Shown one piece after another: positions 80 to 14,584 of a stretch of 20,463 bases of DNA (positions within the stretch are counted from its first letter, which is position 1; every line of letters starts with the position of its first letter). A program made the position numbers and the translations under genes. Origin of the DNA: a virus; IMG/VR virus record IMGVR_UViG_3300010232_000025. The stretch is one strand, 5' to 3'. A model generated the notes under the pieces. It had not been told where the DNA came from and searched no databases. It saw only the letters and a list, made by a program, of their open reading frames with translations.

Positions 80-163
80 TGGGCGGGGCGGGATTTGAAC
101 CCGCGGTTCCCTACGGAAAGAGGTCTTAAGCCTCCCGCGTTTTCCGGGCTTTGCTACCCGCCC
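80..163 (-). tRNA. trnL: tRNA-Leu, anticodon UAA (class II, no encoded CCA)
   Basis: Minus strand GGGCGGG-TA-GCAAAGCCCGGAAAACGC-G-GGAGG-CTTAAGA-CCTCT-TTCCGTAGGGAA-CC-GCGGG-TTCAAAT-CCCGC-CCCGCCC-A. Shows a 7-bp acceptor stem, anticodon TAA at 128-126, a long variable arm, a TTCAAAT T-loop and discriminator A. The D-stem is weak (A12.C23 mismatch). Confidence 0.95.
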
Positions 164-182
164 TCGAAAAGGAACGTGTGAC

Positions 183-444
183 TTGTCGGGCGTACCGTCG
201 CCGCGGGGGTTCCGCGGGACGTTACCCGCCCCTCGTTCACGGGTCGGGGCCTTCGAGTCCGGTCCGGGGCGTCGCCGCCTGTTCGCTACTAACCCTCGCG
301 GGCTTTCCACTCGGACCGGTTTAGGGCGCGGTCCCCGTCGCCTGTGGGTGGGGCTGTTCCCTATGCGTGTCGCCCACTCTCGCCCGTGGGAACCATGAGG
401 TCCACAAGCCGGGCCTAAGCGGGTCCGAGGGACGCATGGGACAG
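183..444 (-). ncRNA. Candidate structured non-coding RNA upstream of, and probably co-transcribed with, tRNA-Leu
   Basis: No acidic ORF. Multiple helices: 432-444 pairs with 354-368; hairpins at 373-390, 313-334 (GGACCG/CGGTCC), 291-304 (AGCCC-GCGA-GGGTT, GNRA loop) and 201-217; 228-232 pairs with 266-270. The promoter motif at 468-487 predicts a start near 443. Confidence 0.45.
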
Positions 445-467
445 GCTACCGGTCGGGCGGGTGTGGT

Positions 468-494
468 AAAAAGGTCCGGGACGCTAACCGGTTC
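468..494 (-). promoter_or_regulatory. Viral promoter-family copy (GTTAGCGTCCCGGACCTTTTT)
   Basis: 27-bp near-identical copy (1 mismatch) of 13511-13537, which lies about 25 nt before a leaderless ATG. Same register as the TTAGCCYCCGRTAACTTTWT family. Confidence 0.7.
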
Positions 495-790
495 TACAGG
501 TCGGGGACCTGAACGGGCCGCTGGACCGCCTCGCGGACGACGGTCGGGATATGGGTCACGTCGAACCACTCCTCTCCCTCGCCGCCGACCTCCTCGACGG
601 TCGAGAGGTCCACAGCGGTAAGCGCCTCGCCCCTGTGGGTCGTCTCGTCCTCCGGGAGGGCTGAACTCGGACGGAGACGCATGCGGAACGTTTCGCCCGC
701 CGCTTCGTAGTAGACGGAGAGAGTTGAGATCCCGTCCGCCTCGCCGCGAACCTGTAGGACCGCCGCGGAGTCCTTAGCGGTTGAGGACAT
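494..790 (-). CDS. Hypothetical protein (98 aa)
   Basis: Acidic ORF with halophile-type codon usage; its ATG abuts the TAA of the upstream ORF. Confidence 0.8.
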   Translation of the reverse strand: MSSTAKDSAAVLQVRGEADGISTLSVYYEAAGETFRMRLRPSSALPEDETTHRGEALTAVDLSTVEEVGGEGEEWFDVTHIPTVVREAVQRPVQVPDL

Positions 791-1183
791 TTACGCGCCC
801 TCCTCGTCGTCGTCGTTCTCGCGGATGTTCTGACGCGCCTCGTCCGCCTCGTCGGAGTTGAGGTAGCCCTCCTCCTCCGCCCGGTTGATAGTTTCGAGGT
901 TCGCCTGTGCGTGTCCGGAGAGGTCCGTCGTCTCGCCGTCGCGGAGGGAGGCGGGTTCCGGGTTCCACTCGTCCTCGTCGTCCGCGTCGTCCTCCTCCTC
1001 GTCGCCGCCGTCGGGCCACAGGTCCGGGGGCGTTCCCGTGTCGCCGGGTCCAGCCCATACGCGGACCGCGGGTTCGTTCTGTTCGCGGTTGAGTTCCCGC
1101 TGTCGTTCACTCTCCGCCGCGAGGCGTTCCCCGCGGAGGCGTTCCTGTTCCTCGTCGTCGCGGTCGTCGGTGTTCTGTCGCAT
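791..1183 (-). CDS. Highly acidic hypothetical protein (130 aa)
   Basis: Asp/Glu-rich ORF starting directly after conserved leader copy 1. Confidence 0.8.
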   Translation of the reverse strand: MRQNTDDRDDEEQERLRGERLAAESERQRELNREQNEPAVRVWAGPGDTGTPPDLWPDGGDEEEDDADDEDEWNPEPASLRDGETTDLSGHAQANLETINRAEEEGYLNSDEADEARQNIRENDDDEEGA

Positions 1184-1271
1184 AGCGTGGGTGGATATCG
1201 GGATCCTCCTACAGTCCCGCCCGCCCGGACGACCGTCGTCCGACCGGGTTACGGGCTACGGGAGGGTCGGG
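1184..1271 (-). repeat. Conserved structured leader element, copy 1
   Basis: Minus strand CCCGACCCTCCCGTAGCCCGTAACCCGGTCGGACGACGGTCGTCCGGGCGGGCGGGACTGTAGGAGGATCCCGATATCCACCCACGCT-ATG. Closely similar to 2871-2954 and partly to 4180-4250. Confidence 0.9.
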
Positions 1272-1724
1272 CTACTCCGTCCGGGCGGAGTCCTGAAAGA
1301 GGACTGTCCCCTCGTTGAAATTGACCTCCGCGACCTCGAACCCGTAGCGGTCCGCGACCTCGAACACTCGTCCGGAGAGGCGTCCGTTCTCGAACTCCGG
1401 GGAGAGGATAGCGCCCGTGTCCCCGACCTTAACGACCTTCGGGGTTCCGATTTGTTCAGCGTCGCGGACGGACGCGACGAACTCCCGGACCCGCGAGGAA
1501 ATGGATAGGACCTCCGCCCACTCTCCGAGAGGGTCGAGGTAGTCCAGCGTGTAGGACTGTTCCTCTCGCGCCCCGTCGAACGCGAGGGTGAGGACCGTCT
1601 CCCCGTCCACGTCCTCCGTCTCAACGACCTCGCCCACTCGACCCGCGAACGAGGCGTCCGCGTCCGAGACGTAGTAGTGGTCCGCGACCTGTTCCGCGTT
1701 CATGGCGTCGGTGTTCTGTGCCAT
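1272..1724 (-). CDS. Hypothetical protein (150 aa)
   Basis: Acidic ORF; leaderless ATG 25 nt after a promoter-family motif. Confidence 0.85.
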   Translation of the reverse strand: MAQNTDAMNAEQVADHYYVSDADASFAGRVGEVVETEDVDGETVLTLAFDGAREEQSYTLDYLDPLGEWAEVLSISSRVREFVASVRDAEQIGTPKVVKVGDTGAILSPEFENGRLSGRVFEVADRYGFEVAEVNFNEGTVLFQDSARTE

Positions 1725-1745
1725 ACTCTATTATTGTCGTGGGGG

Positions 1746-1798
1746 ATAATAAAAGTATCGGGGGCTAACGGAGAATAGTCCAGAAAGAACGCCCGGGA
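1746..1798 (-). promoter_or_regulatory. Terminator-promoter junction; promoter-family copy (20-mer at 1749-1768)
   Basis: Minus strand TTCTTTCTGGACTATTCTCCG-TTAGCCCCCGATACTTTTAT, immediately after the previous TAA. Confidence 0.8.
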
Positions 1799-2080
1799 TT
1801 AGTCCCGGTCGTCCGGCATGTCCAGCCCGTAGCGTTCCGCCTCGGAGGGCGTCGGGTCCTCTTTCACGTCGTCCCACGTCCGCGAGGGTTCCTGTTTTCG
1901 TTCCGCGAGGTCCAGCGCGTTGAGTTCGGACTCCGGACAGTCGTCGGCGTGGTCCTCCTCCGCCTCCTCGCCCTCGGACGGGATTAGGTGTCCGCATGCT
2001 GGACACTCCGGCGGATCCGGGGCGTTCCACGGGGCGTTAGGGTCGCCCGCGGAGGTCCCCGGCGGGTAGTTCCCGCCCAT
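1799..2080 (-). CDS. Small CPxCG Zn-finger protein (93 aa)
   Basis: Start re-called at ATG 2080 (MGGNYPPG...), coupled to the stop at 2082. Contains CPACG...H...C and an N-terminal YPPG...DPNAPWN segment. Confidence 0.75.
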   Translation of the reverse strand: MGGNYPPGTSAGDPNAPWNAPDPPECPACGHLIPSEGEEAEEDHADDCPESELNALDLAERKQEPSRTWDDVKEDPTPSEAERYGLDMPDDRD

Positions 2081-2081
2081 G

Positions 2082-2870
2082 CTACCACTCCGGACCCTCG
2101 TCCGGGAGGAGATCCCGCGGGACTCCGACGTAGTGTTTCTCCGCGACGCGAGGCGGGTCCCGGTCACTCCCGACCGTCTCCCCCGCGAGGACCGCGACTC
2201 CGTAGCGGGACAGAACGTCCGCGTAGGGCGTCCGGGGGCGTTCGAGAGTGTGGTCCCACGGGTTCGAGTCCGTGAAAATGACCTCGACGTTCGGAGGGTT
2301 CTGTTCGCCTCGACGGGCTGGACCGTAGCGCCCCTCGTCGTATAGGTTTAGGTCCCGGACGCCTCCGAGGGCGCGGAGGTCGTCGTAGACCTCAACAGCG
2401 CGTTCCCGCGCCTCCTCCCACGACATGACTCCTCCGCTGTAGTCGTCGAGGACGAGATCTATAGCGGACGCGACCTCCGTCGTCTCAACGAGAGGGTAGC
2501 CCGCGTTCTCCCGGTCGCGGAGGAACCGGGCGAGGCGACGCATAGCCGCCCCCGGGTTCGTCGCCCCGTCCTCGTCGGTCGCGTCGAGGACGTTCCCCGG
2601 GATTAGGGCGTGTTCCCGCTGTCCTTCTCCCTCGAACTCCTCGTCCGACGGATCGAACGAAAGGTCTACCACGTCCTCCGTGGGGTAGAACGTCGCCCCA
2701 CACAGGGAACAGGTCGCGGAGTCGAACGTCTCCATGTCCTCCGCGGAGAGGGGGTCCGTCTCGCGGTTCACGTCCGGACCACAGTCCAGACAGAACAGCG
2801 GGGCGGTATTCCCCTCAACTACCGCGGAGTAGCCTATTGGTTCGTCGTTTGTGTCGTCGTTTCCTGTCAT
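2082..2870 (-). CDS. Hypothetical protein with N-terminal Zn finger (262 aa)
   Basis: CLDCG...CSLCG motif; acidic; begins after leader copy 2. Confidence 0.85.
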   Translation of the reverse strand: MTGNDDTNDEPIGYSAVVEGNTAPLFCLDCGPDVNRETDPLSAEDMETFDSATCSLCGATFYPTEDVVDLSFDPSDEEFEGEGQREHALIPGNVLDATDEDGATNPGAAMRRLARFLRDRENAGYPLVETTEVASAIDLVLDDYSGGVMSWEEARERAVEVYDDLRALGGVRDLNLYDEGRYGPARRGEQNPPNVEVIFTDSNPWDHTLERPRTPYADVLSRYGVAVLAGETVGSDRDPPRVAEKHYVGVPRDLLPDEGPEW

Positions 2871-2954
2871 AGTCGGGTTGATATCGGGACCCTCCTACGT
2901 CCCGCCCCGACGGACGACCGTCGTCCGACGAGGTTACGGGCGTGGGAGGGTCGC
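2871..2954 (-). repeat. Conserved structured leader element, copy 2
   Basis: Minus strand GCGACCCTCCCACGCCCGTAACCTCGTCGGACGACGGTCGTCCGTCGGGGCGGGACGTAGGAGGGTCCCGATATCAACCCGACT-ATG. Confidence 0.9.
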
Positions 2955-3662
2955 CTACTTCTTGTAGAACGACCACTTACTCGTTCGTTCACACTCGAAC
3001 CCGTAGGAGTCGGACAGGTTCTCGAACAGGAACTCCTCGAACGCCTCCCGAACCTGTAGGTCCAGCGCGGACGCGACGGAGACGGTCACTCCGAGGTCGG
3101 TCCCGAGACAGCCCGTCCCGCTGTGGTCCTCGTCTTTGAACGCGAACGACTCCGCGTTCAGCGTCCCGACGAGGGGATCCTCCTCTAACGCCTCCGCGAC
3201 GACCCGGGCGACGTGGGACGCCATGTTCGAGGAGAGGTCCCCCTCAACGGTCCAGCGGTCCGAGGGTTCGACGACCGTCGCCCGCTGGACGGACAGAACC
3301 TCGTAGCCGCTGTTATCCTCGTCGTCCTCGTCCGGGTAGTTATTGACGAGTCCGCCCGTGTGACTGTCCGCGTCGAGGACGAGGGTCGCCCGGAGACGCG
3401 GGAGGTCGCGGTAGTCGTCGGTCCGTTCGTTCCACACTCTCGACGCTTTTAGCCCGGGGAACATGCCCTCCGCCTCCTCGTCGGGGCGGTCGAGGCGTTC
3501 GAGGTCCGCCGCGTCCTCGTCGGTCCACTCTCCCTCTATCTCGTAGCGGGCGTTCCCGTAGTTCGAGAGTTCGAGTTCCACCACGTCGCCCGCGGACAGG
3601 TCCGAGGCGTCGAGGGGCTGTTCGTCGTCCGCGTCGTCGGTCGGAGTCATGTTTCGACTCAT
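2955..3662 (-). CDS. Hypothetical protein (235 aa)
   Basis: Acidic ORF; leaderless ATG 26 nt after a promoter-family motif. Confidence 0.85.
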   Translation of the reverse strand: MSRNMTPTDDADDEQPLDASDLSAGDVVELELSNYGNARYEIEGEWTDEDAADLERLDRPDEEAEGMFPGLKASRVWNERTDDYRDLPRLRATLVLDADSHTGGLVNNYPDEDDEDNSGYEVLSVQRATVVEPSDRWTVEGDLSSNMASHVARVVAEALEEDPLVGTLNAESFAFKDEDHSGTGCLGTDLGVTVSVASALDLQVREAFEEFLFENLSDSYGFECERTSKWSFYKK

Positions 3663-3685
3663 ACCCTACAATACAGCGCGGCGGG

Positions 3686-3735
3686 TTATAAAGTTACCGG
3701 AGGCTAATAGACAGTAGCCCGAAAGAATAGCCGGG
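3686..3735 (-). promoter_or_regulatory. Terminator-promoter junction; promoter-family copy (20-mer at 3688-3707)
   Basis: Minus strand GGCTATTCTTTCGGGCTACTGTCTA-TTAGCCTCCGGTAACTTTAT. Confidence 0.8.
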
Positions 3736-3744
3736 GGTCGCGTG

Positions 3745-4179
3745 TTACTCCTCGCCGGTCACGTTCCGGTAGCGCCCGGACGCGAGGCGACGGGCGAACT
3801 CGTTACCCGAGATCTCTATGTGCGGGCTGTCCTCGTTCGCGGGGAACTCCGGTTCCTCGAACTCAACCTCTAAAGCGTCCATGGGTCGAGAGTGGTCGAG
3901 GTCGGGGTTTGACCGGAACGAGAACCACCGCGCCGTTCTGAACGTGATAGTCTCGCCCCTGTGTTCGTCGTAGAACTCCATACCCTCGTAGACGTGGACC
4001 TGAACCGCGGGCGGGTCCAGCGTCTCTCCGTCGGAGACGGAGGAGACGGACATGGTAGTTCCGGACGTGTCCTCCGGAGTAGGCCACTCGTCGGGCTGTT
4101 CGTCCTCCGGGATTTGTCCGAGTTCGAGGGCGATATGCGTACTAATCGCGGTCGTCGCGTAGGGTTCGTTTCGTCTCAT
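3745..4179 (-). CDS. Hypothetical protein (144 aa)
   Basis: Start re-called at ATG 4179 (MRRNEPY...), directly after leader copy 3. The GTG extension to 4254 in the track runs through the leader. Confidence 0.8.
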   Translation of the reverse strand: MRRNEPYATTAISTHIALELGQIPEDEQPDEWPTPEDTSGTTMSVSSVSDGETLDPPAVQVHVYEGMEFYDEHRGETITFRTARWFSFRSNPDLDHSRPMDALEVEFEEPEFPANEDSPHIEISGNEFARRLASGRYRNVTGEE

Positions 4180-4250
4180 AGCGTGGGTTTGGTATCGGGA
4201 CCTCCTACGTCCCGCCTCGCCTTGTCCAGCCGCGGACGCGACGAGGCTAC
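4180..4250 (-). repeat. Conserved structured leader element, copy 3 (5' UTR, lacks the upstream anti-GGAGG strand)
   Basis: Minus strand GTAGCCTCGTCGCGTCCGCGGCTGGACAAGGCGAGGCGGGACGTAGGAGGTCCCGATACCAAACCCACGCT-ATG. Begins at the start site predicted from the promoter at 4276-4295. Confidence 0.8.
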
Positions 4251-4270
4251 ACACTACAGTAGGGCCTACG

Positions 4271-4324
4271 GGTATAAAAAGTTATCGGGGGCTAATGGGC
4301 GACAGTCCAGAAAGATAGCCCGGG
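4271..4324 (-). promoter_or_regulatory. Terminator-promoter junction; promoter-family copy (20-mer at 4276-4295)
   Basis: Minus strand CCCGGGCTATCTTTCTGGACTGTCGCCCA-TTAGCCCCCGATAACTTTTT, immediately after a TAA. Confidence 0.8.
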
Positions 4325-5374
4325 TTAGTAGTCGTTGAGGTTGATTTGTTCTCCGCTGTCCGGTTTCGACGGTTCAACGAGGTAGCGGTCGTCCGGGTCC
4401 GGGTGAGTTACCCGACCGTTCGAGGTCACGTCCTTACAGTCCTCACACAGCATTTCTTGAGTCTCCGGCATGGTTTTAGCCCGGAGTTCGGGGCTGGACA
4501 TTTTCCCGTGTCCTAACCATGAGTAATCCTGTTCTCGACCCCGGGCGAGGGCGTCGAGTTCAGGAATAGCCTCTAACGTCTCCGCGAGATCCGGGCGGAG
4601 TTCTCGAAGGACGACGAGGCGGAGACGGGCGTCGTTGTTCTCCTCGCGGTAGGTGTTCACTCGTTCCCATGCGTCCGGATAGTCCTCTTTCAGGTAGCCA
4701 TGAACGCGCCCGCGGTAAACCTGAACCTCCCACTCGTTCCGTTTGAGACGCTGGACGTGTTCGACTATCCACCGGGGCGGATCCGCGTCCTCGCCGTCGT
4801 AATGGCGTAGATCTAACTCGAACTCCCGGAGTCCGTAGGCCATACAGTAACACTCTCCCGACCTGTCTACCTGTTCGACGACGGGCGAGGCGGGGAGGTC
4901 ATGTTCTACGAGAAAGTCCTGAACGTCCTCGTCGCGGAACCCCTCTATTGGGGCCTTCCATATCCCGAACTCCCGTTCCTGAAAGTCTACGACCCGCCCC
5001 ATGCGGGCGTCCGACTCATGTCTCCGGACCCCGGTATAGAGGTATGGCTTTCCGTCGTACTTACGACAGAACCGCTTAATTGGGTGTTCTTTCAGATACC
5101 GGTAATACCATGAGTGTTTACTCGGGCCGGGGAACCCGTACTTTTTCGCGTACCACCAGAACGATTTGCGCGGGCGGAGTTTAACGAGATACCACCCGTA
5201 TTTCTGTGCGACCGCCTCGACGAATCTCTCGTTTAGAGGGATACCTGTCCCGGTGTCTACGTGAACCACCGTGTCCGCGTTCTCGTCTATCTCCATGGTT
5301 TTGAACGTTGAGACGAGACTATCGTAGCCGCCGGAGAACAGCGCCGCGCCTTGTGATTTTGCGTGTCTTGTCAT
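4325..5374 (-). CDS. PAPS-reductase-family (PP-loop, adenine nucleotide alpha-hydrolase) protein (349 aa)
   Basis: Motifs FSGGYDS, VHVDTG, FPGP, YTGVRRHESDAR and RSGECYC. Start re-called at ATG 5374, 4 nt after the MTase stop. Confidence 0.85.
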   Translation of the reverse strand: MTRHAKSQGAALFSGGYDSLVSTFKTMEIDENADTVVHVDTGTGIPLNERFVEAVAQKYGWYLVKLRPRKSFWWYAKKYGFPGPSKHSWYYRYLKEHPIKRFCRKYDGKPYLYTGVRRHESDARMGRVVDFQEREFGIWKAPIEGFRDEDVQDFLVEHDLPASPVVEQVDRSGECYCMAYGLREFELDLRHYDGEDADPPRWIVEHVQRLKRNEWEVQVYRGRVHGYLKEDYPDAWERVNTYREENNDARLRLVVLRELRPDLAETLEAIPELDALARGREQDYSWLGHGKMSSPELRAKTMPETQEMLCEDCKDVTSNGRVTHPDPDDRYLVEPSKPDSGEQINLNDY

Positions 5375-5378
5375 TTTG

Positions 5379-5951
5379 TTATCCGAAACTGTCGAGGGCG
5401 ACCTGTCGCGTCTCCTCAACTATCGCCTCCGAGTTCAGTAGCATACCCGACCGCTTTAGGAGGTGTCCGAGGAGGTCGTCCGGGACCCCCCCCCCGAACA
5501 GATAGAGGACCGTACAAAACGGGGCGGAGTCGTCCGAGTCCCCGAACTTTAGCCGTGAGTCGTGTAGGTAAACGTAGGACGCCCGCGGAACGAACTTGTG
5601 AAACCGGTCGGAGGACGTGTCCACGGAGAGGAGAAGGGCGACGAACTCAACCGCCTCGCGGGTGGACTCTTTCCACGCTTTCTCCGTCCACTCGTCTTTT
5701 TCCGAGTAGGGCGGGTTACACCATACACGTCCATGCCACGGTTCGGACAGCCCGTCCTCTCCGCGTTCGAGGGCGAACGTCTCCTCCGCTATCGGGCTGG
5801 ACTCCGCGCCCGCCGCCGGGTCGAGGTCGAACCCGTCCACCGCCTCCATGATAGGACGGAGAAAGTGGGGAGGGGTCGCCCACTCGTCCGTTCCTCCGCC
5901 CTCAACATGGATCCCGCTTTCAACGACTCTCGAACCCGTCCCTTTTTCCAT
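5379..5951 (-). CDS. Phage Dam-family DNA N6-adenine methyltransferase (190 aa)
   Basis: DEWATP, FDLDPAA (SAM-binding region), VWCNPPYS (catalytic NPPY) and RLKF motifs typical of the small phage Dam family. Confidence 0.9.
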   Translation of the reverse strand: MEKGTGSRVVESGIHVEGGGTDEWATPPHFLRPIMEAVDGFDLDPAAGAESSPIAEETFALERGEDGLSEPWHGRVWCNPPYSEKDEWTEKAWKESTREAVEFVALLLSVDTSSDRFHKFVPRASYVYLHDSRLKFGDSDDSAPFCTVLYLFGGGVPDDLLGHLLKRSGMLLNSEAIVEETRQVALDSFG

Positions 5952-5952
5952 G

Positions 5953-6765
5953 CTATTCGTTCTCGTCGTCGGTCCCCGGTAGCGTGGACTGTTCGTCGTC
6001 CTCGTCCTCCTCGAACCCCGCGTAGGGTAGGACCTCCGTCCGGACCCACGTTAGGAATTGTCCGGTCGTTAGGTCGTTCGGGTCCCACACCTCGACGTAG
6101 CCGGACCGCGCCATGTTCACTTTGTAGGGGAACCCGGACCCGGACCCGTCCTCGTAGATATACTCTCCCGCGAGTTGGTTCAGCCGGTCATGCCGAACCG
6201 CCGCGTCGAGGAGGCTGGACAGGTCCTCGTCCTCTAACACGTCGTCGCCCCATGCGGTGAGTTTCCCCGCGTCGAACGAGGAGGTCGGGCCGCCGGAGGT
6301 CGTCGGCGTGAACGTGTCCTCCCGGTCGAGGTAGAACGACCCGAGGTTCAGGTCCGCCGCCCGGATCCGTCCGGTGTTCTGCCGGGCGACCATGCCGAAC
6401 GCGAACGCGCCCGACGACGAGGAGACGAGGACAAACCCGGAGTGGGAACCGTTCGCCGCCGCCTCAACGACGACGAACCGGGTGTAGTCCTGAACGACGT
6501 TCCCGACGGTCGTCCTCTCGCGGATCTGTCCGTCCTCAACCTCGTAGGACTCGTCCTCAACGGTTCGTTCTCGTAGCGCCTCGCCTACGTAGTAGTCGGT
6601 CCCACCGCCAAACGTCCGCTGTTCCTGAACGTTCAGCGCCGCCGTAAGTTCGTCCACGCCGGGGGCGTCCGTTGTGCGACGGTGGACCGTACTTTCGACG
6701 CCCGTTATCCCGTCCGCCGCCCCTAACGAGGACGGTTCCGGAACCCCAAGAACGCCGCGTTTCAT
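5953..6765 (-). CDS. Hypothetical protein (270 aa)
   Basis: Acidic ORF coupled to both neighbours (ATGA overlap at 6762-6765). Confidence 0.85.
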   Translation of the reverse strand: MKRGVLGVPEPSSLGAADGITGVESTVHRRTTDAPGVDELTAALNVQEQRTFGGGTDYYVGEALRERTVEDESYEVEDGQIRERTTVGNVVQDYTRFVVVEAAANGSHSGFVLVSSSSGAFAFGMVARQNTGRIRAADLNLGSFYLDREDTFTPTTSGGPTSSFDAGKLTAWGDDVLEDEDLSSLLDAAVRHDRLNQLAGEYIYEDGSGSGFPYKVNMARSGYVEVWDPNDLTTGQFLTWVRTEVLPYAGFEEDEDDEQSTLPGTDDENE

Positions 6766-7424: not shown

Positions 7425-8303
7425 TTAGACCTCCTCCTCGTAGCCCGCGTTCTCTATAGCCGCGTCCGCCATGTTGGACCCGACGACCTCAACGAGAAGT
7501 TCCCGGAACTTTTCGAGGGACAGGTCCTCAACCGCCGCCTGTGGGTTCTGTCCCCACAGTTGGGAGAGGAGGGTCGAAAGGACGCGGACTTTCCCCGTGT
7601 TCGCCTCGCCCGGGACGTTCGTCCGTAGGAACTCAACACTCGAACTCCCGACCATGGACGCCTCCTCCGCCGGGTAGCGCGTGAGGCGGGACTCCGGCAT
7701 GGGATAGGCGGTAATGTTCGTGTCTACGGACGTGAGAGAGTCCTTTACGTAGACGACCGCGAACACAGCGTCCGCGTCCCGGAACCGCGTAACGACGTTC
7801 CCCGCGTAGTCGTCCAGCGCGGGGGCGTCCGGGAACGCCTCGTAGTAGTCCGGGACGGACTCCGCGAGAACGTCCACTACGTAGACCTTCGCGCCGGGCT
7901 TTGCCCTGTCGAACGCGAGGTCTTTCACACCTACGCGAGGGTCGAGGGACAGCGGGTTCGCCTCGTCCAGCGGGCGGAGGTCGTCTACCTCGCCCTCAAC
8001 CTCGGAGAGTCGAGTCTCGACCTCGTTTAGGTCGCCCTGAACATCTAACAGGTCCCGCGCCTGTTCGAGGGCGTCCTCCGGACCGTCTACGTCGCCGTGG
8101 GTCACTACCTCGTCCCACGTCTCCGGGTCCGTTACGTCGAGGTTATTCCCGCGGATCTCAACGGTTCCCTCCGGAAACTCCGTCTCGTCCTCGTCTACGG
8201 CGTATGTCTGTCCTCTATACTCCTCTTGTTCGGTCGGATCCTCGTCGGAGTCGGGGCTGTCCCCGTGGTCCTCAAAGTCTCCGAGTTCGTCGTTCTCGGA
8301 CAT
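7425..8303 (-). CDS. Hypothetical protein with a coiled-coil segment (292 aa)
   Basis: Acidic; heptad segment LNEVETRLSEVEGEVDDL; first gene after the promoter copy at 8334-8353. Confidence 0.85.
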   Translation of the reverse strand: MSENDELGDFEDHGDSPDSDEDPTEQEEYRGQTYAVDEDETEFPEGTVEIRGNNLDVTDPETWDEVVTHGDVDGPEDALEQARDLLDVQGDLNEVETRLSEVEGEVDDLRPLDEANPLSLDPRVGVKDLAFDRAKPGAKVYVVDVLAESVPDYYEAFPDAPALDDYAGNVVTRFRDADAVFAVVYVKDSLTSVDTNITAYPMPESRLTRYPAEEASMVGSSSVEFLRTNVPGEANTGKVRVLSTLLSQLWGQNPQAAVEDLSLEKFRELLVEVVGSNMADAAIENAGYEEEV

Positions 8304-8329
8304 GCTACGCCCCCATGTTCTCTATGGAC

Positions 8330-9178: not shown

Positions 9179-9180
9179 GG

Positions 9181-10416
9181 TTACTCCTCGTCCTCGCCGT
9201 CGTTTCGAGAGTCGTATAGTTCGCGGGCGTCCTCCGTGTCGTGTTCCGAACACAGCGGGTAGCCGTCGTCCATGGCGTCCTCGGAGACGGGGTTCGGACA
9301 GTCCGCCGCGGAACAGCCGCCCTCGTCGTCCGTGTCGCCGTCCGCGTCGGAGTCCGCCCCGTCCGTCGCGTTCTCCGCCGCGCCGCCCTCACGGGCGTCC
9401 TCGTCCGTCTCGTCGTCCTCGTAGCGGTCGCCCCACGTCGGAGAGTCCAGCCGCGTAACGCCGTCGGAGTCGTCGGACTGGATACGAGGCGCTAACATGA
9501 ACTCTCCGGAGATCCCCCACCGGGATTCATGGAACTCCATTTTTATCGGGAACTCGTCCCCGAGGCGGAGGGTCACGTCGTCGAACCCCGCCCGAACAAG
9601 GGCGTCCGCCATGTCTTTCAGGTAGTCGAGACTGAACAGGGAGGCGTCGTCCGCGTTCGCCCCGGAGTCCCCGGAGAGGACCTTTTCCTGTGTGCGGAAC
9701 TCGTCCTCCGCCCGGACGAACTTCTCTTTCGAGGACTTACCCGCGGGCTTTCTCTCCCCGCGTTCCATGGCGTACATGGAGAGGTAGCCCTGTGGTCCGC
9801 CGGAGAGGGACCCGTTCCCCACCTCCTCGACGACCGGGCCGAGACGACAGTAGTCGAACGTCTTTTTTATCTCTCGGAGGGCGTCCCGGTATTGGGTCGC
9901 GTCCACCTCGCCCGTCCACGGGAGGGAGAGGTTCGGGAGGTCGGGTTCCTGCCGGATAGAGTCCGGGTCTATGGACATGAACGAACCCGTCCGCGTCATG
10001 CGGTCGTCGGGTTCGACCCGGACGTAGATCCGCCGTCCGACCTGTTCAATCAGAACCGCGTCCCCGGGGTTCTCGTCGGAGTTCCCACCCTTCCGGGCGT
10101 AGCCCGTGGTCGTTTCGAGGCGGTTGAGGTCCAGCCCGACGACGTGGGACTCCGGGACCTCGTAGGCGTCGAACGCCGCCGCGGGAACATGGAGGTCTAC
10201 CATGCCGACGTTCGCGGGGTCCACCGCCCGGACCCGCGCCTCCGCGTCGTCCGCGCCTCCCGCCTCGAACCGGAACTTACACTCGTCTACGAGAACGTCG
10301 AGAACGTTCGTTATTGATTTGAGGAGGTCCCCGCCCGTCCGGACGTGGACCGCCATCGGTTCCTGTTCGTCGTCCTGTGCCTGTTCCGTGTCGTCCGCGT
10401 TTGCTGTCTGACTCAT
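9181..10416 (-). CDS. pcn: DNA polymerase sliding clamp PCNA with an acidic, Cys/His-containing C-terminal extension (411 aa)
   Basis: LVDECK, AVDPANVGMVDL, IDPDSIRQEPDLP, SLFSLDYLKDM, LGDEFP and MLAPRIQSD match haloarchaeal PCNA motifs. Start re-called at ATG 10416 (ATGA overlap with the upstream stop). Confidence 0.93.
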   Translation of the reverse strand: MSQTANADDTEQAQDDEQEPMAVHVRTGGDLLKSITNVLDVLVDECKFRFEAGGADDAEARVRAVDPANVGMVDLHVPAAAFDAYEVPESHVVGLDLNRLETTTGYARKGGNSDENPGDAVLIEQVGRRIYVRVEPDDRMTRTGSFMSIDPDSIRQEPDLPNLSLPWTGEVDATQYRDALREIKKTFDYCRLGPVVEEVGNGSLSGGPQGYLSMYAMERGERKPAGKSSKEKFVRAEDEFRTQEKVLSGDSGANADDASLFSLDYLKDMADALVRAGFDDVTLRLGDEFPIKMEFHESRWGISGEFMLAPRIQSDDSDGVTRLDSPTWGDRYEDDETDEDAREGGAAENATDGADSDADGDTDDEGGCSAADCPNPVSEDAMDDGYPLCSEHDTEDARELYDSRNDGEDEE

Positions 10417-10631
10417 ACGTGTAGTGTCGTCGGTTTTAGTCGGTCGTCGTTCGGGTCCGGGCGGTAGACCTCGCCGCGTTTGAGGAGTTCGTCTACCGCG
10501 TTCTCCGCCGCCTCGCGGGAGACGCCGTTCCGGACCGCCTGTTCTATTACGTCGTCCGTCGGGACGCCGCGTCCCTCGTCCTCGTCGTAGTGGTCCCGGA
10601 CTATCTCCGAGACGGTCGTCCATGAGGTCAT
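10413..10631 (-). CDS. Stand-alone winged-helix protein resembling the MCM C-terminal WH domain (72 aa)
   Basis: GVPTDDVIEQAVRNGVSREAAENAVDELLKRGEVYRP pattern; coupled on both sides. Confidence 0.75.
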   Translation of the reverse strand: MTSWTTVSEIVRDHYDEDEGRGVPTDDVIEQAVRNGVSREAAENAVDELLKRGEVYRPDPNDDRLKPTTLHV

Positions 10632-11917
10632 AGTAGCCCCATGTCGTCGAGGAGGGCGCGAACGAGGGCGTCACCCGAGGGCTGTCCGCCCGGGTGGACG
10701 GACTCCTCGGACGCCCGTTTCTGTAGGGCGTTGTAGGACTCTCGCCGGAGGTTAGACTCGACGACAGCCGCGTTTATGCGGGTGAAATTGTCCCACCCAC
10801 AGCCGGGACAGAACGTTACCGTGTCGCCGTCCTCCGTCTCCTCCGTGTCGGTCCCGGTTCCACACTCCGGACACTCGTCCGGGCGCGGGATCTCAACGAA
10901 CTCAACGTCCGCGAACTTGTCGGGCTGGACGACCGTCTCGTTCTCCGCGAACTCTCGAATCTCGTCCTCCGCCGCGTCCAGTTGGTCGCGGATCTCGTCC
11001 TCGTCGAGGTTCGACTCCTCCGGGACCTGTTCCACGTCGCGCCCGGGTTTGTCCGAGGCTTGAACACTCACAGGTTCGCTTTCGGCGTCGCCGTTTCCGA
11101 ACCCCTCGTCGTCGTTTAGCGTCGTCGCCCGGGACCCGTCGGCGTGGATTTGGTCCCCGATATGAACGAGGTCCATGTCCTCGCGTCCCGCCGCCTGTTC
11201 CTGTGCCCACGCCGGGAACCGTCCTTTCTCGTCCTCCGTGTAAACCGTTCTATGGAGGTAGACGTAGCCGATAATCCCGGGTTTCCGTTCCTCGGACTCC
11301 TCGTAGTAGACCGCGTTCGGGTGGACGAGGAACAGCCGGGTCCGCCCGGGTTCGACCCGGGGCGGTTCTTGTGACTCCGAGACGGGGATAGCCTTCGAGA
11401 GTCCCTGTTCACGGACCTCCTCAACGAACCCCTCCGGAGTGTCGTAGTAGGACTTTCCCACTAACATGAACAGGTCCCGCGTTTGGAATTGGGGGACCTC
11501 GCCCGCGTGTTCGAGTCCGTGGGCGTCGCCGGTCGTCCGGGAGATATGCCGCCATATCTCCCCGGTCGGGTCCGTTGAGAACCCGCCCTCGGACGAGATC
11601 CCGTCCAGAACGCCGCGGAGTTCGCTTGTTTCCTCGTCGCCTACGTCGTCCTCAACGCCGGAGGGACGAATCCACTCCCCGACTGTCCCCGGAACGTTAT
11701 CGGGGCCGGTAACGGCTAACTCAAACTCAACGCCGGGGAAATACTCGTAGCCCCGGAACTTACTCCGTTCGAGGTAGGGAACCGCCGGGTCGAACTCAAC
11801 GAACGGGGGGAGAGTTCCGTCTCCGGACCGGGGCGGACTCCGTAGGTATGCTTTGCTGTGTTTGAGGAACCCACAGCCGCGTTCCTCGTTTCGTACTGTC
11901 TCGCGTTCCTTTGTCAT
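10628..11917 (-). CDS. Multidomain hypothetical protein: ERGCG-type phage domain, acidic linker, Zn ribbon, C-terminal HeH/Rho-N-like helix pair (429 aa)
   Basis: ERGCGFLK...VGKSYY...LFLVHP...PGIIG; CPECG...CPGCG; YNALQKRAS...GDALVRAL. SD-like GGAGG 11 nt upstream. Confidence 0.85.
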   Translation of the reverse strand: MTKERETVRNEERGCGFLKHSKAYLRSPPRSGDGTLPPFVEFDPAVPYLERSKFRGYEYFPGVEFELAVTGPDNVPGTVGEWIRPSGVEDDVGDEETSELRGVLDGISSEGGFSTDPTGEIWRHISRTTGDAHGLEHAGEVPQFQTRDLFMLVGKSYYDTPEGFVEEVREQGLSKAIPVSESQEPPRVEPGRTRLFLVHPNAVYYEESEERKPGIIGYVYLHRTVYTEDEKGRFPAWAQEQAAGREDMDLVHIGDQIHADGSRATTLNDDEGFGNGDAESEPVSVQASDKPGRDVEQVPEESNLDEDEIRDQLDAAEDEIREFAENETVVQPDKFADVEFVEIPRPDECPECGTGTDTEETEDGDTVTFCPGCGWDNFTRINAAVVESNLRRESYNALQKRASEESVHPGGQPSGDALVRALLDDMGLL

Positions 11918-11967
11918 AGCGCGTAGTCCTCCGTGTTACCGCCTGTCCGCCGCCCTCGGAGGGGCGA

Positions 11968-12040
11968 ACGGATAGGGCGTCTATCCGTTTTGTATGTGAC
12001 TGATATAAAGTTACCGGAGATTAATGGAGAGTAGCCAAAC
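11968..12040 (-). promoter_or_regulatory. Promoter-family copy (20-mer at 12005-12024) with an 8-bp inverted repeat over the predicted start site
   Basis: Minus strand TTAATCTCCGGTAACTTTAT. ACGGATAG-GGCGT-CTATCCGT at 11968-11988 spans the predicted start near 11979. Confidence 0.75.
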
Positions 12041-12053
12041 CGCTTAAGCGGGT
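12035..12053 (-). terminator. Possible terminator hairpin
   Basis: Perfect palindrome CCGCTTAAGCGG (12040-12051) followed by TTT on the minus strand, just after a small ORF. Confidence 0.35.
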
Positions 12054-12066
12054 CCTACCGTGGGGG

Positions 12067-12192
12067 CTACCGCATGTCCGGGTCGGGGTCGAACCGCTTT
12101 ACCTCCGTCCAGCCGCGGTCGTGAATCTCGACGACTATCTCCTCGCCCTCTCGCCGCTTACGAACCGGGAACGCATATCTGGACCCGAACAT
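12067..12192 (-). CDS. Small hypothetical protein (41 aa), not in the ORF track
   Basis: MFGSRYAFPVRKRREGEEIVVEIHDRGWTEVKRFDPDPDMR*; GGAG 4 nt upstream; fills an otherwise empty gap. Confidence 0.55.
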   Translation of the reverse strand: MFGSRYAFPVRKRREGEEIVVEIHDRGWTEVKRFDPDPDMR

Positions 12193-12228
12193 AGGACTCC
12201 GTGAGAACGAGTAACACTTAGGCGTAGG

Positions 12229-12783
12229 CTACGGGTCGAGAGGAGAGTCCGGGATCTCCTCCGCCGCGCCCGCGAACACACAGCGCCCATGAACGAGTCC
12301 GCCGCCTAAGCCCTCGGACTGTGCGACGCCCCCGATAGGGTTCGTCGGGTAGATAGCGTCCCCGCACTCCTCACACTCCGGGAGGTTGAGGAGGTCGTCC
12401 AGCGTCTCGTAGTAGTCCGCGTCCCGGGCGTCCGGGTCCAGCGTCCGCGCCCCCGCGTCCGTCTCCGGGAGGTCCCGCGGATCCGCGAGATACCATGTAG
12501 TGTCCCGGTCCCACCGAACTCCGACCCGAGGTTCCGCCCGTCGGAACAGGGAGGCGTAGCGGAGTAGCGCCTCAACCTCCGCCTCCGTGAGGTAGCGGTT
12601 TTTCGACGTGTCGTGTCGCTTTACCTCTATCGCCCACTCGTAGCCGCCGTCCGAAACGTGTAGGTCCGGGAGGTCGAACCCCGGCGCGGACCCACTCCCC
12701 GCCGCCCGGACGACCGCGAACCCCTCGTCGTTCAGCCGGTCGCGGAGTTCGCGTTCCCCACGGTCGCCCTTACTGTTCCCCAT
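12229..12783 (-). CDS. hjc: Hjc-type Holliday junction resolvase (PD-(D/E)xK) with C-terminal Zn finger (184 aa)
   Basis: KGDRGERELRDRL..GFAVVRAAGSG...LPDL...AIEVK. Start re-called at ATG 12783. Tail CEECG...HGRC. Confidence 0.9.
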   Translation of the reverse strand: MGNSKGDRGERELRDRLNDEGFAVVRAAGSGSAPGFDLPDLHVSDGGYEWAIEVKRHDTSKNRYLTEAEVEALLRYASLFRRAEPRVGVRWDRDTTWYLADPRDLPETDAGARTLDPDARDADYYETLDDLLNLPECEECGDAIYPTNPIGGVAQSEGLGGGLVHGRCVFAGAAEEIPDSPLDP

Positions 12784-13180
12784 GGTCCTCCTCGTCCAGC
12801 GCGTCGGAGATCTCCCGGGCTGTCTCAACCGGAGACGTATCGTAGACCTCCGGGGAGTCGTAGTTCTCGCGTTCCTCTCGCGTAGGCGGACGTTCATGGA
12901 CGACGACCGTCGTCGGGTCCTCAACGACGAGGGCGAGGTCCGCCTCGCCTAACGCCTCGTCCTCCGTCGGAGAGATCCACGACATGAACGCGGACCCGTA
13001 GACGAACTCCGAGTAGCGCCGCGCCTGTTCGAGACGCTGGACCGCTGTCTCGTTTACCTCCGCGTCCTCAACGACGACCGCCCGGACCGGGAGGCTAACG
13101 CCGCCCGGAACCTCCTCGTCGTTGAGGTCGTCGAGGAACCCGGACAGGAACTCGTCGAGGATAGGGTTCGGACCGTCCAT
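12770..13180 (-). CDS. Hypothetical protein (136 aa)
   Basis: Acidic ORF; its ATG abuts the upstream TAG. Confidence 0.8.
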   Translation of the reverse strand: MDGPNPILDEFLSGFLDDLNDEEVPGGVSLPVRAVVVEDAEVNETAVQRLEQARRYSEFVYGSAFMSWISPTEDEALGEADLALVVEDPTTVVVHERPPTREERENYDSPEVYDTSPVETAREISDALDEEDHGEQ

Positions 13181-13483
13181 CTAAATCAGCCCCTTTCTCG
13201 CGTAGACCTGTGCGAGGAGGAGGGCGAATACGATACACCCGCCTCCGAGGACCGCGAGGGTCGGATAGAGTCCGAGGACGGACAGCGCCCACAGCGCGAC
13301 GCCCGCGACGACGAGGACGACGCCGCCGAACAGGAACGCCGCGAGGGACAGCCCCGCGAGGGTCCCCGCGCCCACTCCGAGGGAGAACCCGGTTAGCATA
13401 TCGCCGGTCGCGGACTCTCCGTCCGCGGGGATCTCCGCGTCGGGGTTCGCCTTTCGTTCTACCTGTTCGTCGTTCGAGGACAT
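13181..13483 (-). CDS. Small membrane protein (100 aa)
   Basis: Long hydrophobic stretch compatible with 2-3 TM helices; leaderless ATG after the promoter at 13511-13530. Confidence 0.8.
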   Translation of the reverse strand: MSSNDEQVERKANPDAEIPADGESATGDMLTGFSLGVGAGTLAGLSLAAFLFGGVVLVVAGVALWALSVLGLYPTLAVLGGGCIVFALLLAQVYARKGLI

Positions 13484-13510
13484 TAGGAGAGGACTACTAA
13501 CCGCCGGGAG

Positions 13511-13537
13511 AAAAAGGTCCGGGACGCTAACGGGTTC
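13511..13537 (-). promoter_or_regulatory. Viral promoter-family copy, near-identical to 468-494
   Basis: AAAAAGGTCCGGGACGCTAAC(G/C)GGTTC occurs twice; the predicted start near 13486 matches ATG 13483. Confidence 0.75.
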
Positions 13538-13540
13538 CGG

Positions 13541-14584
13541 TTAGTCCAGCGCGGACCGGTCTATCTCAACCGCCTCGCGGAGGTCCGTCCGCGCCTCCCG
13601 GACCCGCTGTTCGACCTCGCCTTTCGAGTCCTCGTCCACGTAGCGCCGGATAGAGTCCTCTATCATGTCCTCAAACTCGTCCCGGTGGTATTCTTTCAGC
13701 GCGTTGAGTTCGACGTTCGTATCTCGCCCGCCGGAGACGTTCGACATGAACCGGTCCCGGAGTTTCCGGTCCTTATCGGTCGAGGACGGGGTAGGGTTCT
13801 CCGGGAGGTCGTATTTCTTGATATGTTCGAGGTTCAGCGCCTCCCTCTCGAACATGAGGTCCGCGGGACCGTCGCCGTATTGAATCGGACTGTTCGAGGG
13901 CCATACGTCGAAAAAGTCCGGGTCATTCGAGTCCACTTTCTCCCGAAAGTCCAGCCCGTAGTAGCCCATGGACGCCTGAACCGCTACGGGCGCGTGGAAC
14001 CCGGAGGGGTTGAAGTCCCCGTAATAGAGGATCCGGACTCGTTTCCCGTCGTTCAGTTTCCCGATTAGCCGCTGTGTCGCCCGGAAAATCTTAGAGTGGG
14101 ACCAGTCCCCGCGGGTCGCCTCTAAGCGGACGTTCCACCGGTCACAAATCGAGCGGAACAGGGACGCAAGAGACGCTTTCTCTAACCAAACCTCAACATA
14201 CGTTTCCTGTTCCTTCCAAAAATCCTCCCGGTAAGCGTTCCATATCCCCTCAACCTGTCGGGACAGGAACTCCTCCGGATCCGCGTAGCCGTCGAACGGG
14301 GTCGTCGCCGCCCGCCTCGACGTGTCTACGATTTGGTTCGGATGAATGAACCCCGCCTCGCGCCCCCGCTTTACCGCCGTTTTCACGGTCCGGTAGTCGT
14401 AGTCCTGTCCCCGCGCCTCTAATGCGTAGTAGATATCACGGGCTGTTCTGTCCTCGCCGTCGGAGAGGAGGTCCTGAATACGGAGGACGAGTTCCGTGTA
14501 TTTACTCCGCGGGTTCCACGTTCCGCCCGCGTCGGGGAACACGACAGGGATCTCCCCGCCGGGCGTCTCAACTGTCTGAACCAT
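13541..14584 (-). CDS. Topoisomerase VI-A/Spo11-like protein (WHD plus TOPRIM; Mini-A type) (347 aa)
   Basis: TARDIYY (catalytic Tyr region), YVEVWLEKASL, TRGDWS and ILYYGDFNPSG. Confidence 0.8.
   Translation of the reverse strand: MVQTVETPGGEIPVVFPDAGGTWNPRSKYTELVLRIQDLLSDGEDRTARDIYYALEARGQDYDYRTVKTAVKRGREAGFIHPNQIVDTSRRAATTPFDGYADPEEFLSRQVEGIWNAYREDFWKEQETYVEVWLEKASLASLFRSICDRWNVRLEATRGDWSHSKIFRATQRLIGKLNDGKRVRILYYGDFNPSGFHAPVAVQASMGYYGLDFREKVDSNDPDFFDVWPSNSPIQYGDGPADLMFEREALNLEHIKKYDLPENPTPSSTDKDRKLRDRFMSNVSGGRDTNVELNALKEYHRDEFEDMIEDSIRRYVDEDSKGEVEQRVREARTDLREAVEIDRSALD

Follow-up and report, generated by a model that had tools for sequence, protein, structure and literature searches.

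The bldA gene of Streptomyces encodes a tRNA-Leu(UAA) in a high-GC genome in which TTA codons are rare. Phage tRNAs can replace host tRNAs that have been cleaved by anticodon nucleases. Phage tRNAs are also said, in work of Bailly-Bechet et al. 2007, to bridge differences in codon usage between virus and host. HGTV-1 carries 34 tRNAs, including Leu tRNAs for CTC, CTA, TTA and TTG (PMC13532342). In Hardycor1, AGCT, CTAG and TGCA are absent, as are 22 palindromic 6-mers, and CAGC, CATC and CCAG are strongly reduced (PMC7911831).

Here, we analyzed the IMG/VR record IMGVR_UViG_3300010232_000025, a stretch of 20,463 nt (20.5 kb; hereafter the window) which holds the early and replication genes' region of a tailed virus of haloarchaea. 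We consider it reasonably probable that a purge of short words dictates where TTA is placed in this DNA and that a dispensable tRNA-Leu(UAA) tops up the decoding of UUA. As an earlier note on this DNA had said, the virus carries a tRNA gene that matches TTA. ARAGORN assigned Leu(taa) at 79-163 (-), and Rfam RF00005 matched the gene with 51 bits (gathering score, 29) over model positions 1-71, showing that it is full-length and not truncated. The gene and its flanks, the latter shared with three relatives (R52, L126 and G003), are as follows.

79..163, minus strand: tRNA-Leu with anticodon UAA, found by ARAGORN and Rfam RF00005
164..200, minus strand: conserved viral flank directly upstream of the tRNA (...GGTACGCCCGACAAGTCACACGTTCC), then TTTTCGAG; aligns to the tRNA-less R52, L126 and G003
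6..65, minus strand: conserved viral flank directly downstream of the tRNA (GTCCAGCCCGTCGAACG...CCTAATCGTTCGCCCCC); 92% identity to R52 and 84% to L126

The tRNA is of class II, with a long variable arm (...CCGTAGGG...), discriminator A and no encoded CCA. All five viral copies compared share, without variation, the variable-loop AG and discriminator A, both identity elements of the haloarchaeal LeuRS. No clear promoter was found in the region directly upstream, and a conserved non-coding element precedes the gene. The tRNA lies 79 bases from the window end, and many haloviruses integrate at tRNA genes (PMC7230728, PMC7911831); in place of a working viral gene, the sequence could thus be an attP site for integration or a host tRNA where a provirus ends. 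However, the tRNA is full-length, and both of its flanks are conserved in continuous viral sequence of R52 and L126; the conservation of the 6..65 flank places the tRNA within the virus genome and not at a host junction. Furthermore, a Pfam scan of the 20 larger window proteins turned up no integrase, and G002 and G010, both complete genomes, have the tRNA at an internal position adjoining replication genes. An attachment site or host tRNA is therefore extremely unlikely.

The word content of the window was compared with 200 synonymous-codon shuffles in which the proteins and the codon usage were kept. GAGC/GCTC occurred once versus 214±10 expected, CTGC/GCAG 4 times versus 87, and CTTC/GAAG 23 times versus 162, while GAAGA, AGCT and CTAG had 0 copies versus 57, 33 and 22 expected, respectively. 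Dozens of 5- and 6-mers stood at 0 versus at least 10 expected. CTCGAG and TGCA, like CTAG and AGCT, had 0 copies in the 20.5 kb, with about 21 copies of CTCGAG expected under a Markov model. Most 6-base palindromes and several type-IIS-like words were also purged. The depletion was strand-symmetric, each word and its reverse complement being near zero in all three reading frames. The palindromes that would block CTN codons (CTCGAG, CTAG and AGCT) are indeed absent, but the emphasis of the earlier note on palindromes was too narrow, since it is mainly a non-palindromic word, GCTC/GAGC, that bars CTC. Many of the avoided words match known enzyme sites, as in the Hardycor1 paper; the 4-mer GAGC, however, is not to our knowledge the target of any enzyme. 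By analogy with the halovirus literature on motif avoidance, we infer that host nucleases drove the purge. The purge of both strands and every frame limits the choice of Leu codon at each site.

Codons were counted in the 30 CDS of the window (6021 codons), whose genes are almost all encoded on the minus strand. Leu was encoded by CTC (261), CTG (91), CTA (45), TTA (26), CTT (16) and TTG (8). Leu-Glu was written only as CTC GAA (15), TTA GAG (7) and TTA GAA (1), and CTC GAG, expected about 10 times, did not occur (P(0)=2e-6). Glu-Leu was written as GAA CTC (20), GAG TTA (3; 4816, 11719, 19443), GAA CTT (3), GAA CTA (1) and GAA TTG (1), with 0 GAG CTN pairs versus about 19 expected. These gaps follow from the avoided words. 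CTC was never found after a G-ending codon (0/78), where it would make GCTC, or before GAG, where it would make CTCGAG; no CTN followed GAG, since this would make GAGC/AGCT; and CTA never preceded G (0/45), since this would make CTAG. CTG was never found before C, and before G it occurred almost only as CTG GAC. Between G-ending and G-starting codons, Leu was only CTG (20) or TTA (14). The earlier note had listed seven TTA GAG sites, an absence of CTC GAG and CTA GAG, and a Glu-Leu spelling that avoids AGCT. The counts bear out all three, and the seven sites, which read CTCTAA on the plus strand and TTA GAG on the minus strand, are without exception in-frame Leu-Glu. The 26 TTA codons of the window are as follows.

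3186..3188, minus strand: TTA in GCG TTA GAG (Ala-Leu-Glu); CTC would make GCGCTC/CTCGAG, and CTA would make CTAG
3871..3873, minus strand: TTA in GCT TTA GAG; all four CTN blocked (GCTCT, CTAG)
4514..4516, minus strand: TTA in TGG TTA GGA
4574..4576, minus strand: TTA in ACG TTA GAG
4814..4816, minus strand: TTA in GAG TTA GAT (Glu-Leu); any CTN would make AGCT/GAGC
6235..6237, minus strand: TTA in GTG TTA GAG; all four CTN blocked
6724..6726, minus strand: TTA in TCG TTA GGG
8046..8048, minus strand: TTA in CTG TTA GAT
9493..9495, minus strand: TTA in ATG TTA GCG
11462..11464, minus strand: TTA in ATG TTA GTG
11717..11719, minus strand: TTA in GAG TTA GCC; TTA is the only codon allowed
12307..12309, minus strand: TTA in GGC TTA GGC
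12950..12952, minus strand: TTA in GCG TTA GGC
14123..14125, minus strand: TTA in CGC TTA GAG; CTC would make CTCGAG, CTG CCTGGA, and CTA CTAG
14183..14185, minus strand: TTA in TGG TTA GAG
14420..14422, minus strand: TTA in GCA TTA GAG
16319..16321, plus strand: TTA in ATG TTA GAA
16451..16453, plus strand: TTA in GAC TTA CGT; not forced (CTC and CTA allowed; CTA here in R52)
18225..18227, minus strand: TTA in GGT TTA ACT; weakly forced
18306..18308, minus strand: TTA in GGA TTA GGC
19156..19158, minus strand: TTA in CGT TTA GAT
19321..19323, minus strand: TTA in GAT TTA CAG; not forced
19441..19443, minus strand: TTA in GAG TTA CGG
19525..19527, minus strand: TTA in GCG TTA GCC
19606..19608, minus strand: TTA in CAT TTA ATC; any CTN would make GCATC
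19696..19698, minus strand: TTA in ACA TTA GGC

With CTC barred after G-ending codons and CTA barred before G, TTA stood before a G-starting codon in 21 of the 26 cases (p=4e-6), and 14 of the 26 were flanked by a G-ending and a G-starting codon (p=7e-11). CTC was blocked at 21 and CTA at 23 of the 26 sites. The proposal that TTA appears where a CTN codon would form an avoided site thus stood, but its restriction to sites before Glu was too narrow, as any G-starting codon will do. When Leu codons were shuffled among Leu sites, at least 7 TTA-GAG pairs arose in 0 of 20,000 shuffles (p<5e-5), and the same shuffle gave p=0.0004 for GAG-TTA; the enrichment predicted at both junctions was found. 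Rare TTA is a fallback codon, used mostly between G-ending and G-starting codons, and it always replaces CTA before G. What counts against forced TTA is that CTT or TTG is permissible at about 70% of the TTA sites. Codon resampling under hard constraints roughly doubled TTA, and when started from Hardycor1 codon usage it reproduced the observed Leu codon table of the window; a roughly two-fold increase is all that the hard constraints explain.

R52 is a complete 52.2-kb genome closely related and syntenic to the window, with a PCNA 84% identical. Neither ARAGORN nor Rfam found a tRNA in the complete R52 genome, which has a hairpin at the exact tRNA site; a hairpin and then a T-run occupy this spot in close relatives. 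In L126 and G003, the tRNA is missing at the exact syntenic site. R52 follows the same Leu codon rules and has 3.3 TTA per 1000 codons, with G next to 48 of its 50 TTA on the 3' side; the TTA frequencies of L126 and G003 are 2.4 and 5.4 per 1000 codons. Where a window TTA aligned to a Leu codon of R52 (11 sites), R52 also has TTA in eight cases, indicating that TTA sites are held in place. At aligned sites, TTA occurred 18 times in the window versus 11 times in R52 (discordant sites, 10 versus 3), a difference that is not significant (p=0.09). The same recoding in relatives without the tRNA, an outcome that the earlier note had named as refuting its proposal, indicates that the recoding exists independent of the tRNA, which is an optional addition. 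The comparison suggests that tRNA-Leu(UAA) is a dispensable accessory, gained or lost recently; in our favored reading, it would benefit the viruses that carry it.

A bldA-like timing switch, in which translation of a subset of genes with TTA waits for the virus-made tRNA, would have the same ingredients: a host of high GC, UUA as a rare codon and a tRNA-Leu(UAA) dedicated to it. However, the TTA counts of individual genes followed their Leu content in the window, G002, G009 and G010 (chi-square p=0.11-0.92), an evenness that a cause at the DNA level would produce. The position of TTA is set by neighboring bases and not by gene class, and the same TTA sites persist in the tRNA-less relatives. 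The switch is therefore disfavored, and we consider it very unlikely. Chance or plain mutation bias, such as C-to-T at CTAG without selection on words or codons, would have in its favor that CTA-to-TTA is a single transition and that other CTAG-free viruses show an excess of TTA before G (47 of 63 in HFTV1). On the other hand, 20- to 200-fold depletions on both strands and in all frames are beyond mutation bias alone, Hardycor1, which lacks CTAG but keeps GCTC, shows no TTA-before-G excess (13/28), and relatives have TTA sites in common. Chance or mutation bias is disfavored by the shuffle and permutation tests, and we rank it as the least probable reading of all.

Across haloviruses, we compared six high-GC carriers of tRNA-Leu(UAA) (the window, G001, G002, G009, G010 and G012) with 16 non-carrier records. 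TTA ranged from 4.2 to 11.8 per 1000 codons in carriers and from 0.5 to 7.7 in non-carriers (Mann-Whitney p=2.5e-4); among records with at least 57.5% GC, the two ranges did not overlap (non-carriers, 0.5-3.3). The window has 4.2 TTA per 1000 codons versus 1.5 in a 20-kb sample of the Halorubrum luteum chromosome. In our favored reading, the purge would have raised UUA use several-fold above that of ordinary high-GC haloviruses and of this haloarchaeal sample, and the tRNA would top up the decoding of UUA, perhaps also of UUG. A link between the tRNA and TTA demand, as the earlier note proposed, was thus seen at the family level but not within the clade of the window, where R52, L126 and G003 have similar TTA without the tRNA. 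The carriers represent no more than about three lineages, and the independent events behind the correlation are therefore few. Also against the link, HFTV1 has 7.7 TTA per 1000 codons without a Leu tRNA, HRTV-25 has 4.4 without tRNA-Leu(UAA), and no tRNA was found within the 38 kb examined of G015 (5.9).

A further explanation is that motif avoidance dictates TTA and the tRNA is unrelated to it, being either a neutral passenger that comes and goes or a counter to host systems by which tRNA-Leu(UAA) is cleaved or depleted. Viruses that are very closely related and obey the same codon rules differ in whether they have the tRNA, a patchiness typical of accessory or counter-defence genes, and the tRNA-less relatives evidently thrive at 3.3 TTA per 1000 codons. 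The 17-base anticodon arm common to the window and G001 had no haloarchaeal match among about 185,000 species genomes, indicating that the tRNA was not copied recently from a host. However, all high-GC contigs of IMG/VR in which this type of tRNA was found (G001, G002, G009, G010 and G012) are motif-purged and TTA-rich, the accompanying Gln(UUG) and Glu(UUC) tRNAs fit exactly the codons forced in those genomes, tRNA-Lys(UUU) is absent where AAG stays usable, and no tRNA-targeting system is known for the host. We consider an unrelated tRNA possible but doubtful.

The favored reading, in which the tRNA helps to decode TTA forced by the purge, also fits the wider family. Lineages that have lost CTC/GAG and CTG/CAG altogether use other codons for Leu, Gln and Glu and carry tRNA-Leu(UAA) together with tRNA-Gln(UUG), once also with tRNA-Glu(UUC). 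Relatives purged of these trinucleotides carry tRNA-Gln(UUG), with CAA/CAG counts of 233/55 in G002, 187/12 in G009 and 189/33 in G012. G009, which carries all three tRNAs, has only 2 CTC, 3 CTG, 7 GAG and 12 CAG among 11,760 codons; it keeps AAG and carries no tRNA-Lys. The viral tRNAs form at least three sequence lineages. On the other hand, several GAA-dominated viruses have no tRNA-Glu.

Like Hardycor1, the window lacks the same three tetramers and many 6-base palindromes and avoids non-palindromic words too, and in both the purge is read as escape from host nucleases. Unlike Hardycor1, which has 658 copies of GAGC/GCTC, the window is almost without this word, and some of its relatives purge whole trinucleotides. 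The motif-avoidance papers on haloviruses (Hardycor1, PMC7911831) draw no link to codon choice or tRNA genes, and the HGTV-1 paper (PMC13532342) does not mention restriction at all. As with bldA, a single dedicated tRNA-Leu(UAA) accompanies high GC and a rare UUA codon, but TTA in the window is even over all genes, is set by neighboring bases and gives no sign of gene-specific regulation. Like tRNAs that counter anticodon nucleases, the viral tRNA is accessory and patchy, with an anticodon arm unlike those of host genomes, but the tRNA set here fits forced codons and not known nuclease targets. As with codon-compensating viral tRNAs, the anticodon fits a codon that appears to be used above the level of typical high-GC haloarchaea, and carriage correlates with codon use at the family level. 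Unlike the compensation of the HGTV-1 type, however, the codon excess of the window can be traced site by site to word avoidance and not to lower GC or a preference for A/T-ending codons; the codon families that are blocked have their match in a single tRNA or in sets of two or three; and, unlike in the known cases, a close relative shows the tRNA to be dispensable. Codon compensation by viral tRNAs is itself already known, and the new part is motif avoidance as its proposed driver.

The window is the replication/early region of an undescribed tailed halovirus. Its GC content was 62% overall with high third-position GC, nearly all of its genes were on the minus strand, and the encoded proteins were acidic. 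Several of these proteins matched haloarchaeal viruses in tblastn searches (HCIV-1, 56%; HHTV-1 and HRTV-25, 35-40%), and a near-identity search with the whole window found no match among 50,697 phage records. Exact look-ups of two window proteins found neither on record, and a search of IMG/VR with the 347-aa topoisomerase-like protein returned no confirmed relative. Sequence past window position 1 was deduced from relatives. The features used here were as follows:

79-163, minus strand: full-length tRNA-Leu(UAA), 51 bits on the Rfam tRNA model
5379-5951, minus strand: Dam-family methyltransferase (Pfam)
Elsewhere in the window: PAPS-reductase-like protein, laminin-G-type protein, TFB-like protein and Hjc resolvase (Pfam)
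Elsewhere in the window: PCNA (weak Pfam match, under Pfam's threshold)

CTAG, AGCT and TGCA were entirely missing from the window, as were the majority of 6-base palindromes. Compared with 200 synonymous-codon shuffles of the window, GAGC/GCTC occurred once where about 214 copies were expected, CTGC/GCAG 4 times (87 expected), CTTC/GAAG 23 times (162), CATC/GATG 12 times (85), and GAAGA/TCTTC not at all (57). Since the depletion was present on both strands and in all three frames, it acts at the level of DNA rather than of codons. GAGC/GCTC also had zero copies in R52 (a complete relative of 52 kb), in HHTV-1 (49 kb; L004) and in the wider-family record G001 (16.6 kb; L025); there were 658 copies in Hardycor1, 356 in HCIV-1 and 388 in a haloarchaeal chromosome sample. 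We know of no enzyme with the 4-base site GAGC. GATC was retained in the window (46 copies), alongside the Dam-family methyltransferase gene, and was absent from G001, G002 and G010. This contrast suggests self-methylation in the window lineage and avoidance in the other three. L128, a near-identical relative whose PCNA is 98% identical to that of the window, has an HNH-endonuclease-like gene and no listed PAPS-reductase match beside Dam. Between its 273-aa gene and the module's tail end, one gene seems to have been exchanged for another. These differences suggest cassette swapping within the module.

Leu codons were counted in 30 hand-checked coding sequences of the window (6021 codons), with CTC used 261 times, CTG 91, CTA 45, TTA 26, CTT 16 and TTG 8. 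The word gaps imposed strict rules on these codons. CTC never stood behind a G-ending codon (0/78), CTA never stood ahead of a G-starting codon (0/45), and CTG was never followed by C and, when before G, was CTG GAC in 21 of 23 cases. Leu flanked by G-ending and G-starting codons was written as CTG (20) or TTA (14) and nothing else. As a result, TTA was mostly followed by G (21/26; p=4e-6), and 14 TTA codons were in the G-to-G context (p=7e-11). An absent word would arise from CTC at 21 and from CTA at 23 of the 26 TTA sites; this count is partly circular because the forbidden words are defined by their own absence, a problem from which the neighbouring-base tests are free.

The earlier note had described Leu-Glu as TTA GAG or CTC GAA, and its TTA GAG sites were confirmed: each is CTCTAA on the plus strand, and every one is in frame. 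Leu-Glu was restricted to CTC GAA (15), TTA GAG (7) and TTA GAA (1), with no CTC GAG where about 10 were expected. When Leu codons were permuted among Leu sites, 7 TTA-GAG pairs were reached in 0 of 20,000 trials, and the same permutation gave p=0.0004 for GAG-TTA. Glu-Leu was indeed mostly GAA CTC (20) or GAG TTA (3), the two forms proposed, with GAA CTT (3), GAA CTA (1) and GAA TTG (1) in addition; GAG CTN was absent (about 19 expected). The idea that TTA appears where alternatives would create avoided sites thus stood, while palindromes as the chief cause and Glu as the sole neighbour did not: the main blocker of CTC was the non-palindromic GCTC/GAGC, and the TTA rule extended to all G-starting neighbours. 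Avoidance of CTAG alone was rejected as the cause of TTA before G, as Hardycor1 also lacks CTAG and has no such excess; the excess requires GCTC- and CTGC-type blocks besides CTAG. Codon resampling under hard constraints only about doubled TTA, and resampling with Hardycor1-like base usage gave back the observed Leu table. Hard constraints account for only part of TTA use in the window.

Other codon families of the window were also distorted in a way unusual for a 62%-GC halovirus (Cys, TGT 32 vs TGC 2; Ile, ATA 53 > ATT 22; Lys, AAA 87 > AAG 58; Val, GTT 123), accompanying depletion of AAG/CTT, CAA/TTG and GCA/TGC (the last 91 vs 290). Archaeal decoding of ATA requires a specially modified tRNA-Ile; no tRNA-Ile of this type is carried by the window.

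The earlier note linked this recoding to carriage of the tRNA and took the same TTA use in related viruses without the tRNA as refuting that link. Among the closer relatives found by protein search, R52 (52.2 kb, circularly closing) was covered by walking along contigs. It is syntenic with the window, its PCNA is 84% identical, and ARAGORN and Rfam found no tRNA in it. R52 nevertheless had zero CTAG, AGCT, TGCA and GAGC/GCTC, followed the same Leu rules, and had a TTA frequency of 3.3 per 1000 codons, with G following in 48 of 50 cases. HFTV1 (GC 54%) has no Leu tRNA, yet its TTA frequency was 7.7 per 1000 codons, and 47 of the 63 TTA codons preceded G. The recoding is thus independent of the tRNA, the outcome that the note itself had named as refuting its link. 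At aligned codons TTA occurred 18 times in the window and 11 times in R52, with 8 in common, and the discordant sites (10 vs 3) were in the predicted direction without reaching significance (p=0.09).

Both tRNA flanks were conserved in R52 and in the near relative L126, which places the tRNA inside the virus genome and excludes its being an attP site or marking a host junction. At the tRNA position both relatives have a hairpin of about 50 bases followed by a T-run, and a third near relative, G003, has no tRNA at the corresponding position. The hairpin, CCCGTCCCG...CGGGACGGG then CCCTTTTCGA, is at L123:20322-20384 (a contig of R52) and L126:15133-15189, aligned to window 66-172. Hairpin and CCCTTTTCGA look like a terminator, and tRNA and hairpin are a clean replacement of one another between conserved flanks. 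Directly upstream of the site, a roughly 330-base non-coding element (window 170-500, minus strand) was 71-82% identical in R52, L126 and G003, with or without the tRNA. Its consensus fold has 81 pairs, 12 with compensatory changes among four sequences, making it a candidate structured RNA. A sensitive search with the tRNA found no match in the 50,697 phage records; its 17-base anticodon arm gave only bacterial and methanogen chance matches in a species genome collection, with no haloarchaeal genome, and its 3' half matched a single unrelated 45%-GC contig in metagenomes.

Further relatives were gathered by tRNA pattern, by a common 429-aa protein and by PCNA, and whole records were Rfam-checked for tRNAs. 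In its intron mode ARAGORN also called tRNAs whose introns spanned several hundred bases; these were disregarded because none was confirmed by Rfam where checked. tRNA-Leu(UAA) was found in six high-GC records (the window, G001, G002, G009, G010 and G012). TTA per 1000 codons was 4.2-11.8 in these carriers and 0.5-7.7 in 16 non-carriers (Mann-Whitney p=2.5e-4), in a comparison where no more than about three lineages contribute carriers, several records are fragments, and gene calls in relatives are heuristic. At GC >=57.5% the two ranges separate.

In the following wider-family records, whole trinucleotides were purged in every frame:

G009 (L038-L040): CTC/GAG and CTG/CAG almost gone; about 17 GAG/CTC in its 35 kb of coding sequence
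G008 (L046-L048): CTC/GAG almost gone
G010 (L041-L043): CTC/GAG almost gone
G002 (L022-L024): CTC/GAG strongly depleted, CTG/CAG depleted
G012 (L105-L107): CTC/GAG strongly depleted, CTG/CAG depleted

Usual restriction sites are much longer than three bases, and the trinucleotide avoidance may reflect evasion of CRISPR PAMs or an unknown defence. That a non-palindromic 4-mer is almost entirely gone, and in relatives even whole trinucleotides, points to undescribed specificities among haloarchaeal defences. Host nucleases were argued to drive the purge in Hardycor1 and PH1 (PMC7911831, PMC3622292), and by analogy we infer that they would drive it in these haloviruses.

The purged words and the tRNAs carried went together. 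HHTV-1-like relatives, in which CTC/GAG is purged and CTG/CAG retained, write Leu as CTG and have no tRNA. With both pairs purged, G002, G009 and G012 write Leu as CTA/CTT/TTA/TTG, use CAA for Gln and GAA for Glu, and carry tRNA-Leu(UAA) and tRNA-Gln(UUG); G009 also carries tRNA-Glu(UUC). Among 11,760 codons of G009 there were 2 CTC, 3 CTG, 7 GAG and 12 CAG; AAG was retained for Lys, and there was no tRNA-Lys. Blocked codon families and carried tRNA sets therefore agree at the family level, and the viral Leu tRNAs form at least three sequence lineages. The tRNA-Gln(UUG) of G002, a complete genome, is at L023:15600-15716 on the minus strand (117 bases), with a 32-base intron placed by ARAGORN, splicing of which would require the host splicing endonuclease.

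The reading that best fits these results is that the tRNA is an optional helper gained in a setting where UUA demand had already risen: word avoidance would raise the demand, and tRNA-Leu(UAA) would then be acquired. The tRNA probably improves UUA decoding, and it is not essential. On the other hand, its role may be in counter-defence, or it may be neutral. The even distribution of TTA among the genes makes a bldA-like switch with TTA gating unlikely. Extending the helper reading, we tentatively propose, at somewhat less than even chances, that in one halovirus family defence evasion deleted 3-4-base words (CTC/GAG, CTG/CAG, GAGC/GCTC) in all frames and so rewrote the Leu/Gln/Glu codon table, and that the hardest-hit lineages repeatedly gained the U34 tRNAs Leu(UAA), Gln(UUG) and Glu(UUC) for the leftover codons, the window being the mildest case, at the stage of gain or loss. 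If this is true, DNA-level immunity pressure is a direct cause of viral gain of translation parts.

The chief interest lies in the family-wide pattern and the natural with/without pairs. As natural controls, the family offers both nearly identical genomes that have or lack the tRNA and relatives in which the number of matching tRNAs is one, two or three; the idea is therefore directly testable. The purpose of viral tRNA genes is debated, with codon bridging, replacement of degraded host tRNAs and decoys all proposed. Halovirus motif avoidance and codon bridging by viral tRNAs have each been published already, and our literature search found no paper joining the two. Joined, they offer a concrete upstream cause for virus-host codon mismatch, readable site by site, in which short-word avoidance strips host-preferred codons at predictable positions.
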